A DNA stretch of 64,000 nt, taken from the NCBI GenBank assembly GCA_029249345.1, contig JAQWHM010000017.1, forward strand, positions 262,456 to 326,455. Direction: 5' to 3'. Below are positions 15,962 to 23,975 of the stretch, piece after piece; within the stretch, counting starts at the first letter, position 1; every line of letters starts with the position of its first letter. The position numbers were made by a program, and so were the translations under genes. This DNA comes from Rhodothermales bacterium. GTDB lineage: Bacteria; Bacteroidota; Rhodothermia; Rhodothermales; UBA10348. The notes under the pieces are model-generated. The model was given only the letters and a program-made list of their open reading frames with translations, was not told the origin of the DNA and did not search any database.

Positions 15962-16777
15962 ATGAACCGGCTTTGGGAGCGGATTCGAGACTGGATTTTG
16001 CTGGGGGGCCTCCTCCTCATTTCGCTCGTCCTATTGCTGACGGCGAACGAATCCATGTTACGTGGCCTAAGGGCTCGCTCGCTCGAAATCACATCCGCTG
16101 TCGAGGGCGTCTTTTCTGGCCTGGGGCGCTATGTCCGAGCCCTCGAAGAAAACGAGACGCTGCGAACCCAGAACATCGAGTTATCCAACGATGTGGCCCT
16201 TATGCGTGCTGCACAGTCTGAAAATGCCCGTTTACAGTCTTTACTCGCCTTATCGGACTCCCTCGATTACGATTTAATTGCCGCCCGAGTTACGTCCAAG
16301 GACATTACAAAGGAGCGAAATGTGTTTGTCGTTGATGCAGGTCGAAGCAACGGGGTTGAGTTAGATATGTCGGTGATTGATTCCAGAGGCATTATCGGCA
16401 AAGTCATTTTGGTTTCTGAGAATTACTCTCAGGTAATGACCTATCTGAACGACGAGTTTTTTGCGCCCGTTCGTGTCCTACCATCTAATTCGGACGGTAT
16501 TATTCGTTGGGACGGGGGGCGATTTGATCGACTCATACTGGATTTCATCGTTCAGTCGGCAGCCATAAAGCCGGGAGATCCCGTTGTCACAAGCGGCCAG
16601 TCTGCTGTCTTTCAGTCCGGCTACCCGATTGGAATCGTCGACGAGGTTTTTGCTGAGCCTGGAACGAGTACTTGGACCATACATGTAACCCCAACAGCAG
16701 GATTAGACGACGCCTCGCACGTCTTCATTGTTAATGCAGCGCCAAATGTCGAATTACAATCATTGATTTCGCAATGA
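15962..16777 (+). CDS. mreC: rod shape-determining protein MreC
   Basis: N-terminal TM, coiled-coil (ENETLRTQNIELSNDV...ENARLQSLL), then beta-domains with GIIGKV and GYPIGIV motifs. Confidence 0.88.
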   Translation: MNRLWERIRDWILLGGLLLISLVLLLTANESMLRGLRARSLEITSAVEGVFSGLGRYVRALEENETLRTQNIELSNDVALMRAAQSENARLQSLLALSDSLDYDLIAARVTSKDITKERNVFVVDAGRSNGVELDMSVIDSRGIIGKVILVSENYSQVMTYLNDEFFAPVRVLPSNSDGIIRWDGGRFDRLILDFIVQSAAIKPGDPVVTSGQSAVFQSGYPIGIVDEVFAEPGTSTWTIHVTPTAGLDDASHVFIVNAAPNVELQSLISQ

Positions 16778-18270
16778 GCCGAAGACGCCTTCTACTCGTG
16801 CTTTTCGGGTTAGCCGAAATACTGAATTCTTCCTCCTCTTTCGCTCAAACGCGTACAGTGTCTGAGCTCCGCTCAAGCATCGACGAGGCAGTTGCATCAG
16901 CTAACCTGCCCAATGCATGGATAACCATAAACGTGCAGGATGCTACGACCGGAACGGCTTGGTATCAGAAGGATGTTGGACGCAGTTTCATTCCTGCGTC
17001 CAATACGAAGTTGTTTACCACGGCTGCCTCCCTGCATTTGTTGGGACCGGATTTCAGATATGAAACCTCCGTTTGGACCGATGGAGAAGTCTCTGGCGGA
17101 ATATTACATGGTAACCTGATCGTAAAAGGATCGGGCGACCCAGTCATTGGAGGTAGATTTAGCGATGGAGACTTGACGCATACCTTTCGGTCTTGGGCCG
17201 ATTCCTTGAAGGGTCTTGGCATTACTCGCATAACAGGCGACATCATTGGAGATGACGACTTTTTCGATGAAGATCCACTTGGGAGCGGCTGGCAAGCCAA
17301 CTACCTAAACGACTGGTATGCTGCAGAAATTGGCGCTTTGTCTTTCAACGATAACTGCGTAGACCTGACGCTTATCGCTCAGAAAGAAAATATGCCCACT
17401 TTGATAGAGTGGGCACCGTTCATGACTGATTTCATCCAGGTAGATAATGCAACGCGGACCGTGGAAGCTACGCTTGGCATTACAGAAGACTACACACGTA
17501 CTCCGGGATCGAATCACTTTGTGGTTAGCACGTTGGTACCTGAGGGCAGACGAGAAACAGAGTCATTAACTGTTCGCAACCCAACCCTCTTTTTCGTTCA
17601 TATCCTGCGTGATGTATTGATTCAGCAGGGCATTGCCGTATCAGGACTTCCGGTTGATATTGATAACCTGTCCGTAAAGCCTTCCTACCCGTCTTCTCCT
17701 CTTTTTTCAACGTTCTCTCCCCCGCTTTCTGAAATTGTATCTGTGATTAACAAACGGAGTCAAAATCTGTATGCCGAGCAACTTCTTCGAACTCTCGGAG
17801 CACACTTTCCTGCCGAAGGATTTGTACGTGGATCTGCGGCATCGGGATGGGCAAGCACCATGGACTTCTTCAGGTCTGCCGGACTGAACACAGAGCGTCT
17901 TCAGCTAGTAGACGGCTCCGGATTAGCTAGGCAAAACCTGGTTACCTCAACTATGGTCTCTCAGGTCCTCAGGTATATGTTCAATCATCCCAACGAGGAT
18001 ATCAAAAAAGGATTTCTAGATTCCCTGCCGGTTGGGGGCGTTGACGGATCGCTATCATCTCGCATGAAGGGCACGTCCGCTGAGGGCAATGTGAGAGCTA
18101 AGACGGGCACTATTGGAGCTGTTTCTGCACTAAGTGGATTCGTTTCCACAGCCGAAAGTACGCATTTGGTATTTTCTATTATGGTTAACCACTACACAGG
18201 ATCGAGCAAAAGTGTTCGAAACTTGCAAGATACCATTTCCACGATTCTGGCGTCTCACGGCTCCCATTGA
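16774..18270 (+). CDS. dacB: D-alanyl-D-alanine carboxypeptidase/endopeptidase (PBP4, peptidase S13)
   Basis: Signal peptide, SxxK motif in FIPASNTKLFTTAA, DGSGL, and KTGT in VRAKTGTIGAVSALSG. The start overlaps the mreC stop (ATGA). Confidence 0.9.
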   Translation: MSRRRLLLVLFGLAEILNSSSSFAQTRTVSELRSSIDEAVASANLPNAWITINVQDATTGTAWYQKDVGRSFIPASNTKLFTTAASLHLLGPDFRYETSVWTDGEVSGGILHGNLIVKGSGDPVIGGRFSDGDLTHTFRSWADSLKGLGITRITGDIIGDDDFFDEDPLGSGWQANYLNDWYAAEIGALSFNDNCVDLTLIAQKENMPTLIEWAPFMTDFIQVDNATRTVEATLGITEDYTRTPGSNHFVVSTLVPEGRRETESLTVRNPTLFFVHILRDVLIQQGIAVSGLPVDIDNLSVKPSYPSSPLFSTFSPPLSEIVSVINKRSQNLYAEQLLRTLGAHFPAEGFVRGSAASGWASTMDFFRSAGLNTERLQLVDGSGLARQNLVTSTMVSQVLRYMFNHPNEDIKKGFLDSLPVGGVDGSLSSRMKGTSAEGNVRAKTGTIGAVSALSGFVSTAESTHLVFSIMVNHYTGSSKSVRNLQDTISTILASHGSH

Positions 18271-18356
18271 CGCCTATTGTGGAACCCGATTTACTCGAAC
18301 GTGTAACCCATACGTTAAACTTCTTATTTGATAGATTGATTTAAGGAACAAGGATA

Positions 18357-18935
18357 TTGTCTATAAACCCTGAGCCAGCGTCCTCTTCGTCCAATCGCAT
18401 TAAAAGCACCACCGTTGTAGGTATTCGACACAACGGATCTGTTGTCCTTGGCTCCGACGGCCAAGCTACATTGGGAAGCACCGTCATGAAGAGCACGGCG
18501 CAAAAAGTGCGCTCCCTTTACGGTGGCAAGATTCTGGCAGGCTTCGCTGGAGCGACGGCCGATGCATTTACTCTTTTTGAACGGTTTGAAGAGAAACTTC
18601 AGCAATTCGGAGGAAATGTCACTCGCTCCGCAGTAGAGCTGGCCAAAGACTGGAGAACAGACAGATATCTTCGAAAACTAGAGGCCCTACTAGCGGTTGC
18701 CGCATCCGATCGTTTGTTGCTCATTAGCGGAACGGGAGACGTCATTGAACCCGACGATGAAATCGTTGCTATCGGTTCAGGCGGTCCATACGCCCTTGCC
18801 GCCGCACGCGCCATGCTCCGACACTCTCCGGATATGGCTTGCCGAGAAATGGTTGAGCAATCTTTGATTATAGCATCGGAAATATGCATTTACTCTAACA
18901 GTAATCTTACTATAATGGAATTGGAAGCGACGTAA
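18357..18935 (+). CDS. hslV: ATP-dependent protease subunit HslV
   Basis: [35 protein letters not shown] and [16 protein letters not shown] start gives a 17-residue extension before the catalytic Thr. Confidence 0.93.
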
Positions 18936-18983
18936 TCCCTCAATACGGCTTTCCACTATTCAACAGTTTAGGAGGGTATTCAT

Positions 18984-19949
18984 ATGCCTGGACAACGATC
19001 TCAATCCCGACCTCGTTACCGAAACGCTATCGTTTTAATTGACTACACCAATGTCTTCGGTGTGGTATCGGAACGATCCGTAAACGATCAGCCGGATGCG
19101 GTAGTGCTCGATTTGATAAAAGAGCTTCACCGGCATATTTCTGACCATATGCATCTGAAACCGCTCAGAACACTCGCTTTTGCGAATTTACCGCCGGGTC
19201 ATGTCAAGGGACACCGGGCAACGGGCGCATGGTTGGCCCAAGGAATTGAGCCCCGATTCACATATGCCCGATCCACTGATGAGGCTTCGGCGATAGAGTT
19301 GGCTATGGAAGCCATGCAGCTAGCTTCAGACGCTGGACCTGATACGGCGTTTGTCCTACTCTCCGGCAATCAGTTGTTTGTCCCACTCGTTCAGCGCTTG
19401 CAGCGCCGAGGACATTTTGTGCTTGCTGCGACGCTTGAAAGTCCTTCAGCAAGCAATCATTTACCCAATGATTGTCAGGATGCTTACCTAAATGCAGATT
19501 TCTTGCTCAAAACAGGAGCGATGCAGGTGGAATTAGATCCATCCGGCGACCATAACTCGGGTATCATGCAGGCTTCCGGTGAGCCGTCGGAAGTTCATCC
19601 TATTACGGATGATATTGTCCGCAAAACCCTGGAGATTATTGACTCTTATTTTGGTCAATACGAAGAGATTTACTTGACTCCGCTCCTCAGAAGACTGTCG
19701 GAAATCTTTGCAGATTCGGAAGATGAGCCTAAAACGCTTATCAATGACCTCGAAAAAAGCGGGGCAGTGTGGCTCGAGAAACGGCGAGGCTTTCCTCACA
19801 ACTATACGATTCTCATGATAAATGAGAATCACCCTGATGTTGCGGAAATCAAGGATTCCCATTCCAATAAGGACGAATCCGACTATGATGATGGGTACTA
19901 CGATGAAGATGAACCCGCATCTGATGAAGATGCGCACTTTGATGACTGA
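18984..19949 (+). CDS. NYN/LabA-like domain protein (degenerate active site) with helical C-terminal domain and acidic tail
   Basis: VLIDYTN...[16 protein letters not shown]...[24 protein letters not shown] follows the NYN/LabA pattern, but SGDxDF is replaced by SGNQLF. The C-terminal tail is [25 protein letters not shown]. It lies between hslV and hslU on the same strand. Confidence 0.6.
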
Positions 19950-19996
19950 TCGGATTACGTCCCTTTTTTAATTTCAAACGGATTAAGACCAAATTT

Positions 19997-21406
19997 ATGT
20001 CGTTCAACAGCGAACTGACCCCTCACCAGATTGTCACCGAATTGGACCGGTACATCATCGGGCAGCGTGATGCTAAAAAGAGCGTGGCTATAGCACTTCG
20101 AAATCGCTGGCGTCGCCTAAATGCTTCTCTAGAGATGAGAGAGGAGATTATGCCAAACAATATTATCATGATTGGCCCAACGGGAGTTGGTAAAACCGAG
20201 ATAGCGCGTAGGCTGGCTAAGCTGTCCGGTGCGCCGTTCATTAAGGTAGAAGCAACTAAGTTTACCGAGGTCGGCTATGTCGGCCGTGATGTTGACTCGA
20301 TGATAAGGGACCTCACCGATATCGCCATCAATATGGTGCGAGAAGAGCACACTGAGTCGGTGCAAGAAAAGGCAAAGGCGCACGCAGAGGACCGTATCCT
20401 TGATTTGTTGATCCCTCCAGCGCCCGTATCGCGACCTGTTGTCCCAGAGAACACACTTCCGGCACCATCAACGGAAACCGGAACGGAATCGGCTAATGAC
20501 GAAGAGTCGTTACGGAATCGAACAAGGGACAAGTTCAGAAAGAAACTTCGTGCAGGAGATCTTGATGATCGTGAGTTGGAAATCGATGTAACCGCTGATG
20601 GCTCACCCATGCTGCAGGTTTTTGGCCCAATGGGTATGGAGGAAATGGGAGTAAACTTTCAAGATATACTTGGCAACCTGGGTGGCGGAAAAAAGAGCAA
20701 AAAGCGTAGAATGCCCGTTTCTGAAGCTCGGGAGCTCTTAACACAGGAGGAGGCCAACAAACTTATTGATATGGACAAGGTCACCAAACAGGCGCTGACT
20801 CGTGTCCAACAGGCTGGCATTGTGTTTATCGACGAAATAGACAAAGTGGCCTCAAGGTCCGGAAGTGGTAAGTCGGGTCCCGATGTTTCTCGAGAGGGTG
20901 TGCAGAGAGACCTGCTGCCCATTGTCGAGGGATCAGGCGTAATGACGAAATATGGAATGGTCAAGACAGACCACATTCTGTTCATTGCGAGTGGAGCCTT
21001 TCATATTGCCAAGCCAAGCGATCTCATTCCAGAACTCCAAGGGCGATTCCCCATCCGCGTTGAGCTCACAAATCTGACAGAAGATGATTTCTACAAAATC
21101 CTGACAGTCCCTAAAAATGCGCTCCTCAAGCAATACCAGGCTCTATTAGCCTCAGAAGGGGTCACAGTAGACTTCAAGGATGAAGCGGTTAAAGAGGTGG
21201 CTTCTATGGCCGCCGCGGTAAACGAGGAAGTTGAAAACATTGGTGCTCGACGGCTTCATACCATTCTAACGACCCTTCTAGAAGACATCCTGTTTGACGT
21301 ACCTGACGCCATGAAGGACGACTCTTTTGAGGTAGATAAGGCGATGGTTCAGGAAAAACTATCCGAAGTCGTAGAAAACAGGGATTTAAGTCAATACATC
21401 CTGTGA
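19997..21406 (+). CDS. hslU: ATP-dependent protease ATPase subunit HslU
   Basis: [22 protein letters not shown], Walker [25 protein letters not shown], and a C-terminal DLSQYIL ending. Confidence 0.96.
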
Positions 21407-22380
21407 GTTCGCAGGAGCATATGGATCCAAAGATTATTGTGGACCAAGTTGAGGCCCGCGCTCTTTGGCAAGATCTACTACGAAACGCCGTAGTTGTTAG
21501 CCCTTTTGATGACTTCGACTTTTTAGACGGGCTTGCCGCGTTATACGGATGGTCTGTCAAAACCGTCGTGTGGGGTCAGCGGTTAGGCGTCCGTTTTGTT
21601 GAACGGTCGCGAATAGGCATTCGGGATATCGTCGTTCCACCGTTTGTACCCTTCTCCAGTGTTTTGCTTTCCAGCGAGGTACCGCTTGATGAACGACTAA
21701 ATACACTAAACCTTGCGTTTCATCCGCTATCTGGTCTTCCAGATTCCAGGCTAATATCGCTACATCCTACCCTTGGCAGAATAGGAGTGCTCAGCCCAAC
21801 GGGATACTCTTTTCGTGAAAAGGCAACCTACGAAGTACCTACAGGCTCGAAAGAGGAGGTGCTTTCACGCTTATCAGAAAGCACTGCTAGGAAGTACAAA
21901 AAATCGCATGATCAATACGATTTTAGGGCAGGCGAAATTGAATCTGTTTTCATTGCCGACATGGTTAAGCAGGCGTACGACAAGCATAGTAAACGTATTT
22001 CCCTTCCAACGGGTGCACTAGGCGTCTTTTGTGACGGACTCACCCAACGACAATTCGCGACCTCTGTTGGAGCCTACAATCGCGACTCGGGCGCATTGGA
22101 AGCTGGGATTGTACTCTTGATGAATGAGGATACTGCATGGTATTGGCTAGCTGGGAGTCAGCCCGGGCCTGCAATGACTGTCCTACTCGTCGATACGCTA
22201 GTCCATCTAAAAACACTGGGCAGATCCTCCATGGATCTGATGGGCGCCAACACACCTGGCATCACGGAATTCAAGCGGCGATTTGGTGGCGACCTAGTAA
22301 ACTATCCTCACCTCCATAAAAGTACGTTTCTGACCGCCCTTCTCTCCTCCTCAGCCAGTTACTTCAGAAAGCTTACGTGA
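21403..22380 (+). CDS. FemAB/BioF2-like GNAT-fold acyltransferase family protein (tentative)
   Basis: 325-aa ORF with C-terminal WYWLAGS...[24 protein letters not shown], resembling FemAB-like/Acetyltransf_6 families. GTG 21403 overlaps the hslU stop (GTGA); alternative ATG at 21421. Confidence 0.5.
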
Positions 22381-23975
22381 ACAAGGAGTCTCATCACCAT
22401 TCCCGTGGCTGGTTCAGAGCAGCCCTCAGTACGGTCATACTTGCTGGCTCCGTGTATTTTTTGAGATTTGGGTATGGCTTCGGAGTAAGTGATCAGGATG
22501 AATTGATTCCACTCGCCATGAAATTCATGGATCCGACAGCCTTTCAAAATGACTGGTTCGTGGCTTATCAGGCTTCTGAATTTGGCGTTCGAACAATCCC
22601 AGCTCATCTACTTGCCTTCTTTGCCAAAATCGCACCCATGGAGACGGTAGTCCTCATCCTGCATATGCTGACCTGGGTTGCGCTGTGTGGGGCTCTTTTT
22701 TCAATCGCAGAACGCATGTGGGCAAACAGAGCAGCATCTGCCTTTTTCGTCCTGCTAGTTGCCGTTATTTCAGCCAGATGGAATCCAGGAGGAAACGATT
22801 TAATACATGCCGTTTTAGTACCCAGCTCGATTTCGTGGGCGCTTTCGCTGTGGGGGTATGATCGCATTCTTGGTAAAATGCCGTTTCAGGCTGGAATTTT
22901 GACCGGCCTTGCCATTCTCATTCAACCGCTTGTCGGATTGCAGGTTGGAGCCGTCTTCCTTGTCCTTCTGTTTGTACAACAACGATCTAAGGCCTGGATG
23001 TTTGCGGTGCCATTTTTACTAGCTGCCCTTCCTATTTCGCTGGCCCTGAGTGGACTTTCTGGCGATAGCTCGAGTGCCGTCGATGCGAGCTTCATTTTAA
23101 CACAGGTTCGTTCTCCCCACCATTATTACCCGGAATATTTTAGTCTTGCTCATTCGGTCAGGTGGTTCGCGATGCTTCCCATCGGTTTGGGAATGCTGTT
23201 CTATTACAGAAAAAGCCACGATGCGGTCCACATGGGCCTACAGGTTTTAATCATCGTGCTAGGCGTACTAGCGACTTCTTATTTAGTGATTAACGTATTT
23301 GACTGGCAGCTCTTAGTTCGTTTACAGCCTTTCAAACTAAGTGTATTTGCACGTTTGATCGCTCTTTCAGGTTGCGTTCTTCTTCTAACCCAGATTCCTA
23401 CCCCAAAAATCTGGACCAAGGTCTCGTCTGCCATCAGCTCTAGTCGATTCTTAGCAGCGTCCTTTGTCCTATTAGCAATCTCATTAATGAGTCCTCAATT
23501 CAGTCCCTACTTGAGCGAGCGAACTCAATTAGTGGATAGTAGCCTGATGGAGGCCTTTAAATGGATTGAGGAAAACACACCCGAAGATGCTGTTTTTGCC
23601 ATTCCCCCGAGTTTAACAGGGTTCCAGATTCACACGAGCCGCGCTCAATACGTCAATTTCAAAGCGTACCCTTTTGATTCTAGCCAATCCACAGAATGGT
23701 TACGCAGGCTACGTACCATTGCCCCGGTAAGCGAAGTATTACCGGGGGGCGTACCCTTACTTAGAAATTTTGAATCGTCGTATACTGCGCAATCGCCTGC
23801 TCGGATGGGCTCTGTATTGTTAGAGGAAGGAATCGATTTTGTATTTCGACCGTTCCCCTCAGAAGAAACCAATAAGCAGTCTGACTGGAATACGAAGTCT
23901 GCGACTTGGTGCAATTCCACATGGTGCGTTTTTGAGACCGCCCAAATTCTCTCAGAAGAACCACATATCGATTGA
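22377..23975 (+). CDS. polytopic membrane protein, GT-C-like glycosyltransferase candidate
   Basis: About 11-13 hydrophobic segments. An acidic first-loop motif (GVSDQDELIP) follows TM1, as in GT-C enzymes. C-terminal soluble ~150 aa. GTG start overlaps the upstream stop. Confidence 0.5.
   Translation: MNKESHHHSRGWFRAALSTVILAGSVYFLRFGYGFGVSDQDELIPLAMKFMDPTAFQNDWFVAYQASEFGVRTIPAHLLAFFAKIAPMETVVLILHMLTWVALCGALFSIAERMWANRAASAFFVLLVAVISARWNPGGNDLIHAVLVPSSISWALSLWGYDRILGKMPFQAGILTGLAILIQPLVGLQVGAVFLVLLFVQQRSKAWMFAVPFLLAALPISLALSGLSGDSSSAVDASFILTQVRSPHHYYPEYFSLAHSVRWFAMLPIGLGMLFYYRKSHDAVHMGLQVLIIVLGVLATSYLVINVFDWQLLVRLQPFKLSVFARLIALSGCVLLLTQIPTPKIWTKVSSAISSSRFLAASFVLLAISLMSPQFSPYLSERTQLVDSSLMEAFKWIEENTPEDAVFAIPPSLTGFQIHTSRAQYVNFKAYPFDSSQSTEWLRRLRTIAPVSEVLPGGVPLLRNFESSYTAQSPARMGSVLLEEGIDFVFRPFPSEETNKQSDWNTKSATWCNSTWCVFETAQILSEEPHID

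Follow-up and report, generated by a model that had tools for sequence, protein, structure and literature searches.

The genes for the HslUV protease, hslV and hslU, normally form a two-gene operon. In the window, by which is meant the whole 64,000-nt stretch of Rhodothermales DNA analysed here, an additional gene lies between them. What does this gene, here called X, encode, is its position more than an accident of gene order, and could its product act together with the protease? The physiological substrate selection of HslUV is poorly understood and, to our knowledge, HslUV is the sole major bacterial AAA+ protease for which neither an adaptor nor a dedicated regulator has been described. 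Searches of the literature for hslV and hslU together with NYN, for HslU adaptors and for Rhodothermales hslVU, with most subscription journals outside their coverage, found no account of an hslV–X–hslU arrangement, in agreement with the first-pass annotation of this DNA, which knew of none.

Organization of the hslV–X–hslU locus

According to the first-pass annotation, X shares its strand with hslV and hslU and is set 48 nt from the former and 47 nt from the latter. These coordinates are exact, and both HslV and HslU match NCBIfam equivalog models. The locus is arranged as follows.

18357..18935, plus strand: hslV, 192 aa (NCBIfam NF003964, 270.6 bits; TIGR03692, 261.7 bits)
18936..18983, plus strand: hslV–X spacer, 48 nt
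18984..19949, plus strand: gene X, a 321-aa ORF for a protein with an NYN domain, a winged-helix domain and an acidic tail
19950..19996, plus strand: X–hslU spacer, 47 nt
19997..21406, plus strand: hslU, 469 aa (TIGR00390 equivalog, 655 bits)
21403..22380, plus strand: ORF of a GNAT-fold gene of the Acetyltransf_6 family, its start overlapping the hslU stop by 4 nt

The catalytic Thr-Thr pair of HslV is at residues 18-19, with position 1 of the TIGR03692 and NF003964 models aligned to Thr-18, and is preceded by a 17-aa N-terminal extension that is kept in relatives. A purine-rich aggaggg is present in the hslV–X spacer, 9 nt 5' of the X ATG. A terminator scan detected no terminator-like hairpin on the plus strand in either spacer flanking X. 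Promoter-like sites around X are not more numerous than in shuffled sequence, as judged with a sigma-70 consensus whose fit to the host phylum may be poor, and one such site within the 3' end of hslV (18889-18916) was dismissed as being no better than chance. The common strand, the short spacers and the lack of terminator-like hairpins within them suggest that X is the third cistron of the hslVU operon and is co-transcribed with its neighbours. The GNAT-fold gene is probably in the same transcription unit as hslU; its orthologs score 31-39 bits against PF13480 (gathering score 22), and it lies 3' of hslU in most of the 80 loci examined, the best 80 from 231 genomes.

Conservation of X in Rhodothermales

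Homologs of X number 216, and all those with taxon names come from Rhodothermales-type MAGs. In GenBank, these homologs and the canonical relatives described below are labelled just as 'NYN domain-containing protein' or 'LabA/DUF88'. When one genome of each GTDB species was scanned, 231 contained an X relative, and gene order was read by tblastn at the best 80 loci. At 76 of these 80 loci, or 76 of the 78 that have sequence on both sides of X, hslV, X and hslU follow one another in this order on one strand. In two loci (L015 and L080) the contig sequence stops inside or just past X. X is found without hslU downstream in L031 and L048, of which L048 is an incomplete second copy from the MAG that also contains L022. 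An apparent X–HslU fusion ORF in L052 is an artefact of a masked run of N, a real stop codon being present before hslU. The gene order persists where X is reduced to about 30% identity, with HslV and HslU there 63-89% identical.

The spacers flanking X range across relatives from overlaps up to several hundred nucleotides. The stop codon of X overlaps the start codon of hslU by 4 nt in six loci (L056, L062, L066, L069, L074 and L079), by 1 nt in L014 and by 8 nt in L016, and the gap between hslV and X is 1-20 nt in many relatives. These overlaps and short gaps have the geometry of translational coupling, suggesting that X may be translationally coupled to its neighbours in some species. The syntenic block conserved across Rhodothermales is larger, mreC-dacB-hslV-X-hslU-GNAT, and since synteny covers all of it, conserved adjacency does not in itself single out X and hslVU.

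Every part of X is under purifying selection. In 12 independent close pairs, omega is 0.03-0.25 for the NYN domain, 0.00-0.09 for the winged-helix (wH) domain and 0.04-0.31 for the tail. The link to HslUV proposed in the first-pass annotation called for X to be maintained at the hslVU loci of close relatives under purifying selection, and both are observed: X is in place at nearly all informative loci, and omega is far below 1 in all domains.

Domain organization of X

The structure of X was modelled with AlphaFold2 from 35 homologs (mean pLDDT 82). The model divides the protein into four parts.

19020..19514, plus strand: NYN (PIN-like) domain, residues 13-177, assigned by Pfam NYN and Foldseek
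19515..19610, plus strand: disordered linker, residues 178-209, with pLDDT <50 at residues 180-197
19611..19877, plus strand: wH domain, residues 210-298, alpha-beta-alpha-alpha-beta-beta-alpha
19878..19949, plus strand: disordered D/E/Y-rich tail, residues 299-321, with pLDDT <50, and the stop codon

X matches Pfam PF01936 (NYN) over residues 16-166 with 43.1 bits (gathering score 24.2, E=7.9e-11), and none of the NCBIfam models matches it. The model of the N-terminal domain has a PIN-like alpha/beta fold without the helical insert and a pLDDT >90 across most of residues 13-177, and the best Foldseek matches of this region are the MARF1 NYN structures 5yaa and 6fdl, with TM 0.70-0.72 normalised to the target. 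The passing of the PF01936 threshold and the match to the MARF1 NYN fold thus bear out the original reading of the N-terminal part as an NYN/LabA-type domain. The linker that follows is the least conserved region of the X family. The C-terminal half had been described as a small helical domain, possibly of the LOTUS/OST-HTH kind; the former description holds, whereas the latter finds no Pfam, structural or profile signal.

The D/E/Y-rich tail at the C-terminus, also noticed at first reading, is disordered in the model and common to the whole family. Across the family, the tail has a median length of 45 aa and contains 39% Asp plus Glu, 12% aromatic residues (mostly Tyr) and 4% Lys plus Arg. 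It cannot be aligned between members, yet its composition is conserved.

The active site of the NYN domain

By eye, four of the five canonical Asp residues of the NYN active site had seemed to be replaced in X. To map the site, the family profile was aligned with 2QIP, and a profile–profile alignment with the canonical relatives was made by hhalign (probability 100%, E=3.3e-57); the two agree with the by-eye assignment residue for residue. Asp-20 (19041-19043) is kept, while Ala-103 (19290-19292), Glu-109 (19308-19310), Asn-129 (19368-19370) and Leu-131 (19374-19376) each stand in the place of a conserved Asp.

Among 79 members of the X family, Asp-20 is retained in 78. Position 103 is Ala, Ser or Glu, and position 109 is Glu or Asp, or else His, Gln, Thr, Lys, Arg or Gly. 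Position 129 varies by clade (Asp, Asn, Ser, Gly, Arg or Gln), and position 131, the last Asp of GDxD, is acidic in none of the 79. This pattern across positions 103-131 points to relaxed constraint on catalysis. The clade of the window protein has the most decayed site, D-A-E-N-L/W, with a single carboxylate left among the canonical Asp positions, in addition to one Glu. More distant Rhodothermales members retain three or four acidic positions; more than 20 of the 79 have a D-E-D-D set (Asp-20, Glu-103, Asp-109 and Asp-129, followed by any residue at the last position), and such members could keep weak nuclease activity. Of the four metal-binding acidic residues expected of an active NYN domain, X retains only Asp-20; it belongs to the NYN fold family but probably without being an active member. 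Since purifying selection on the NYN domain persists despite the decay of the site, the domain would be kept for something besides canonical catalysis, most simply for binding.

The winged-helix domain

The wH domain, not the NYN domain, is the most conserved part of X, with a mean column conservation of 0.73 vs 0.48. The X alignment contains 33 invariant columns, mostly within residues 219-286, among homologs whose identity to the window protein is about 32-68%. Conserved motifs of the wH domain are FGQY, YLTPLLRK, EPK, EKRRGFP, YT and HPDV. Modelled alone, the domain reaches a pLDDT of 92. Its topology is that of a winged helix to which a trailing helix is added, and the best Foldseek matches are PadR, LmrR, RTP, Pex and BlaI, with weak E-values of 3.8e-3 or worse and 13-21% identity. 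The DNA-binding domains of these proteins resemble the wH domain of X in topology, but the conserved residues of FGQY, YLTP, KRRGFP and HPDV are specific to the X family.

No Pfam family matches the C-terminal domain at E<=10 in any of 19 members, and PF12872 (OST-HTH) does not match full-length X at E<=10. A search of the wH profile against solved structures found no sequence similarity and recovered no LOTUS chain, and LOTUS domains are not the nearest structural neighbours of the domain. A LOTUS/OST-HTH identity is not supported, given the lack of a PF12872 match and Foldseek results that give only generic winged helices.

When the profile of the wH domain alone was searched against 1.84 billion representative proteins, just 187 representatives were retrieved, with scores falling steeply past the Rhodothermales set. 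The distant matches are NYN proteins with strong Pfam scores of 70-80 bits, and an SF2 (ResIII/DEAD) helicase (P0213) bears the same wH domain. Judged from these architectures, the wH domain is a module used alongside nucleic-acid enzymes.

Canonical NYN–wH relatives and the origin of X

The NYN proteins that share the wH domain form a canonical NYN–wH family of 719 proteins in a large protein database, for example P0223, P0285 and P0350, which the wH profile retrieves at E of 1e-15 to 1e-8. Their named sources include Chlorobi, Bacteroidetes and Abditibacteriota. The active-site motifs are intact in this family (fIDfENVYY, KNAADMRLCIDA and AGDRDYIPL, corresponding to DxEN, KNxAD and GDRD), and the five Asp residues are invariant in an alignment of 30 canonical sequences. 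The canonical proteins have long low-complexity linkers and end with the wH domain itself, no acidic tail following it. The hhalign comparison of X with the canonical family extends over 290 aligned columns and covers both domains, which indicates that X is a derived branch of an older architecture consisting of an RNase-type NYN domain and a wH domain.

The degenerate site and the tail are derived features of one branch of an NYN–wH family with intact sites. The tail is missing from all canonical NYN–wH relatives, suggesting that it is a Rhodothermales innovation that coincides with the decay of the active site. In a neighbour-joining tree with 300 bootstraps, a weak test on sequences this divergent, the Rhodothermales proteins cluster with P0201, P0211 and P0220 at 100% bootstrap, and a Chlorobi-like clade and an Abditibacteriota clade, each at 100% bootstrap, lie inside the canonical branch. 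A single hslU-linked clade, as expected of one origin, receives 0% bootstrap in the same weak test on very divergent sequences.

Linkage to hslU and Anbu outside Rhodothermales

The gene context of canonical members was read on long contigs and at 80 metagenome loci, about 40 of them with 6 kb of sequence or more. At about 60 of these 80 loci, no hslU or hslV lies within 5 kb, and the neighbours at unlinked loci are unrelated to proteolysis. Universal linkage of NYN–wH genes to hslU is therefore rejected, since most are unlinked. In the largest unlinked group, the flanking genes are an L,D-transpeptidase gene, an AIR-synthase-like gene and a GH31 gene, with dnaK further off, and one divergent relative adjoins genes for an RRM protein, Archease and RtcB.

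The linked loci have gene orders of their own. In the Chlorobi-like clade the order is rpoN-X-hslU-PD40 (L083, L084, L086, L089, L091 and L157), with the identity of HslU checked in the first three of these loci by TIGR00390 scores of 586-597 bits. A separate divergent lineage represented by P0211 (L170) also has the order rpoN-X-hslU. In the canonical rpoN-X-hslU loci, 240-500 nt separate X and hslU. In five Abditibacteriota loci (L085, L096, L097, L148 and L151), X starts 1 nt past the stop codon of an Anbu gene, and the 248-aa upstream protein matches solved Anbu structures with E=1e-69 to 3e-59. The presence of hslU linkage on both sides of the deepest split implies either that the linkage is old with many losses or that it was gained more than once. 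That it recurs with differing gene orders argues most strongly for a functional tie to HslU- and HslV-type proteases, and makes such a tie plausible.

Comparison with known systems

Like X, LabA-type NYN proteins (PF01936, NYN.COG1432; 2QIP) have the NYN fold, and an RNase-fold domain is followed by a small winged-helix-type domain; unlike them, X has an acidic tail and sits within the hslVU operon. Bacterial proteins that combine NYN and OST-HTH domains have been predicted to be stand-alone RNA-degradation systems (PMC5499597). X differs from these proteins in that its C-terminal domain has no OST-HTH/LOTUS signal and four of its five Asp residues are replaced. MARF1 also pairs its NYN domain with winged-helix-type (LOTUS) domains (PMC5499597). 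The MARF1 NYN structures (5YAA and 6FDL) are the best structural match to the NYN domain of X, yet their sequence identity to it is only 12-13%. Eukaryotic MARF1 is a catalytically active RNase whose site is intact, and it is not linked to any protease. The closest relatives remain the canonical NYN–wH proteins, which have the same domain–linker–domain order as X and in some cases adjoin hslU or Anbu, but differ from X in that they keep the five acidic residues, have longer linkers and no tail, and are mostly unlinked to hslU.

Adaptors of AAA+ proteases bring a substrate to the unfoldase, whereas RNase R is itself delivered to HslUV and Lon. X resembles the adaptors SspB, ClpS, RssB and MecA, and RNase R, only in the mode of action proposed for it below, and has no sequence or fold relationship to them or to the RNase R/tmRNA–SmpB route. 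We know of no HslU adaptor, hence there is no motif for comparison. The folds of X and the general combination of an NYN domain with a small HTH-type domain are well known; the wH family, the apparent conversion to a pseudo-enzyme, the acidic tail and the fixed place inside a protease operon are previously undescribed.

Possible roles of X

From these observations, we infer that X may bind RNA, that it has probably lost catalysis and that it may interact with HslU or HslV. The gene context makes a functional tie to HslUV plausible. We tentatively prefer the reading, to which we give somewhat less than even confidence, that X is a pseudo-nuclease co-produced with HslV and HslU and that it acts as a nucleic-acid-binding accessory of HslUV, whether as an adaptor, a regulator or a dedicated substrate. 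In the ancestor, an RNase-type NYN domain would have been joined through a disordered linker to this particular wH domain. In the Rhodothermales branch, X would have become fixed as the third cistron of hslVU, most metal-binding Asp residues would have disappeared from its NYN site, and a disordered C-terminal tail rich in acidic and aromatic residues would have been added. One transcript may then yield X, HslV and HslU, with translational coupling in some species. The wH domain and the retained NYN fold may bind RNA, a ribonucleoprotein or a protein partner, and the disordered tail may be the site of engagement for HslU; alternatively, the tail may mimic a polyanion and, within the same molecule, control access to the binding surfaces of X. 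X would then deliver or select substrates as an adaptor or regulator, or would itself be degraded as a dedicated and regulated substrate. A precedent supports this reading: the turnover of E. coli RNase R by HslUV and Lon needs tmRNA–SmpB and the HTH domain of RNase R, so that an RNase is handed to HslUV by way of an HTH domain (PMC12320835). The same reading is weakened because many canonical relatives are unlinked, because synteny extends over the whole block and because X occurs without hslU in L031 and L048.

The main rival, which we consider doubtful, is that X is an RNA-binding stress protein merely co-expressed with HslUV and makes no contact with the protease; it might be an RNA chaperone, or might sequester or mark RNAs in heat stress, by virtue of the operon promoter. 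The helicase fusion and the RRM/Archease/RtcB neighbourhood point to an RNA function for which the protease is not required, and in keeping with co-expression the wH domain elsewhere partners RNases and a helicase, one relative lies beside RRM, Archease and RtcB genes, most canonical relatives have no hslU link and the larger syntenic block is kept in its entirety. Against it stand the linkage to hslU or Anbu, which recurs with differing gene orders in three or more clades that each have their own support, and the location of X between the genes for both subunits with stop/start overlaps in some species, which would constrain stoichiometry beyond what co-regulation needs. It is quite improbable that X, or at least its D-E-D-D members, retains nuclease activity through a reduced or non-canonical site and contributes to RNA decay under the stress conditions in which HslUV acts. 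More than 20 of the 79 members do have the D-E-D-D pattern, NYN.COG1432 proteins carry 1-5 conserved acidic residues in the classification of PIN-like domains (PMC5499597) and the NYN fold is under purifying selection, but the clade of the window protein has D-A-E-N-L, position 129 has changed repeatedly and position 131 is never acidic, as expected of relaxed constraint; the canonical relatives, by contrast, keep all five Asp residues invariant.

Very improbable, in our estimate, is a post-transcriptional autoregulator that binds the hslV–X–hslU mRNA and sets the HslV:HslU ratio or the heat-shock response, the catalytically intact relatives also cleaving the operon mRNA. An RNase-derived fold and a wH domain are encoded within the very transcript to be regulated, and where canonical loci have the order rpoN-X-hslU, the 240-500 nt between X and hslU leave room for a regulatory RNA element; however, the spacers in the window are 47-48 nt and vary in length in relatives, no conserved RNA target is evident, and the acidic tail is left unexplained. 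That X is a functionless passenger held in place by the inertia of gene order would account for the extended synteny across the Rhodothermales region, but selection effectively rules it out: each domain has an omega far below 1 in all 12 independent pairs, 33 residues are invariant among sequences about 32-68% identical to the window protein, and the full-length ORF is kept in at least 76 species.

Implications

The broadest form of the accessory-factor proposal, in which X is the first dedicated accessory subunit of HslUV and NYN–wH proteins are partners of proteasome-family peptidases (HslV with HslU, and Anbu), is unlikely. If it is true, NYN–wH proteins would couple the recognition of RNA or ribonucleoproteins to ATP-dependent proteolysis in several bacterial phyla, and in Rhodothermales a former nuclease would now serve purely for binding, with an acidic tail for engagement. 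Fixed between the subunit genes throughout the order and under strong purifying selection, X is a concrete and clonable candidate for an HslUV partner. Anbu is a proteasome-family peptidase whose function and partners are unknown, and the NYN–wH genes adjacent to Anbu give an entry point to it. The X family is also a clean natural case of a nuclease becoming a pseudo-enzyme, and allows direct comparison between the two-domain protein with its site intact and the same protein with the site decayed.

Gene order around hslV and hslU in Rhodothermales

In the window, positions 15962–23975 carry, in this order, mreC, the S13 D-Ala-D-Ala carboxypeptidase gene, hslV, X (the 321-aa ORF with a degenerate NYN domain, a winged helix (wH) and an acidic tail), hslU, a GNAT gene and the gene for a DUF6798 membrane protein. 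Genes of the cell envelope surround the hslV–X–hslU protease operon. The members flanking the operon are as follows.

Genes flanking hslV–X–hslU in the window
15962–16777, mreC, member of the block
16774–18270, S13 D-Ala-D-Ala carboxypeptidase, start overlapping the mreC stop
21403–22380, + strand, GNAT gene, 325 aa, GTG start, 4-nt overlap with the hslU stop
22377–23975, DUF6798 membrane protein, start overlapping the GNAT stop

Synteny across Rhodothermales covers at least mreC to the GNAT gene, which is retained downstream of hslU in most loci and is probably transcribed together with hslU. Its orthologs pass the Pfam Acetyltransf_6 (GNAT/FemAB-like) model with 31–39 bits, a model on which the copy in the window reaches just 14 bits. 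The gene may have a role in cell-wall synthesis or protein acylation.

Two loci, L031 and L048, are exceptions to the hslV–X–hslU arrangement. L031 (2401–7402) retains hslV–X, and hslU was not found within 4 kb of this pair. L048, from the same MAG as L022, carries a second, partial copy of X at the contig edge (47–607), with hslU absent from the 3.9 kb downstream; this copy represents a paralog, or else contamination of the bin.

N-terminal extension of HslV

The window HslV begins 17 residues ahead of its catalytic Thr-Thr (18357–18410), and this stretch contains no other start codon. Among the best 80 Rhodothermales loci with a relative of X, all that bear hslV start it 7 to 20 or more codons upstream of Thr-Thr, and the junction is kept as [IL]-[RKH]-[SGA] | T-T-V-[VLI]-G. 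The extension looks like a propeptide requiring cleavage, by analogy with Staphylococcus aureus HslV, for which propeptide cleavage has been demonstrated (PMC7468587). The extension and gene X are found together throughout the lineage.

Relatives of X outside Rhodothermales

Seven loci (L083, L084, L086, L089, L091, L157 and L170) have the order rpoN, NYN-wH, hslU, followed in five of them by a PD40 gene. No hslV was found in their 4–5 kb flanks, suggesting that hslV lies apart from hslU or is missing in those lineages.

Anbu is a peptidase of the proteasome family. Five Abditibacteriota loci (L085 3253–5113; L096, L097, L148 and L151) have a canonical NYN-wH gene, with its active site intact and the acidic tail lacking, that starts 1 nt past the Anbu stop codon; the identity of Anbu is given by E=1e-69 against solved Anbu structures. 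Immediately upstream of the pair, on the opposite strand, is a transglutaminase-core gene.

Judged by the winged helix, P0201 (479 aa; L167 1946–3385) is the nearest relative of X outside Rhodothermales, and it groups with the Rhodothermales clade with 90% bootstrap. It has a very long, basic, low-complexity linker and no acidic tail, and its N-terminal half gives no Pfam NYN match. P0220, a divergent NYN-wH relative that lacks the tail and whose VGRLVY motif is degenerate, adjoins an RRM protein, Archease and the RNA ligase RtcB (L168 / L169 4001–8312), which is an RNA-repair neighbourhood. In P0213 (714 aa), a wH domain of the X type (residues 634–713) is fused C-terminally to a ResIII/DEAD-type SF2 helicase, and this fusion shows that the wH domain is a mobile module paired with nucleic-acid enzymes.
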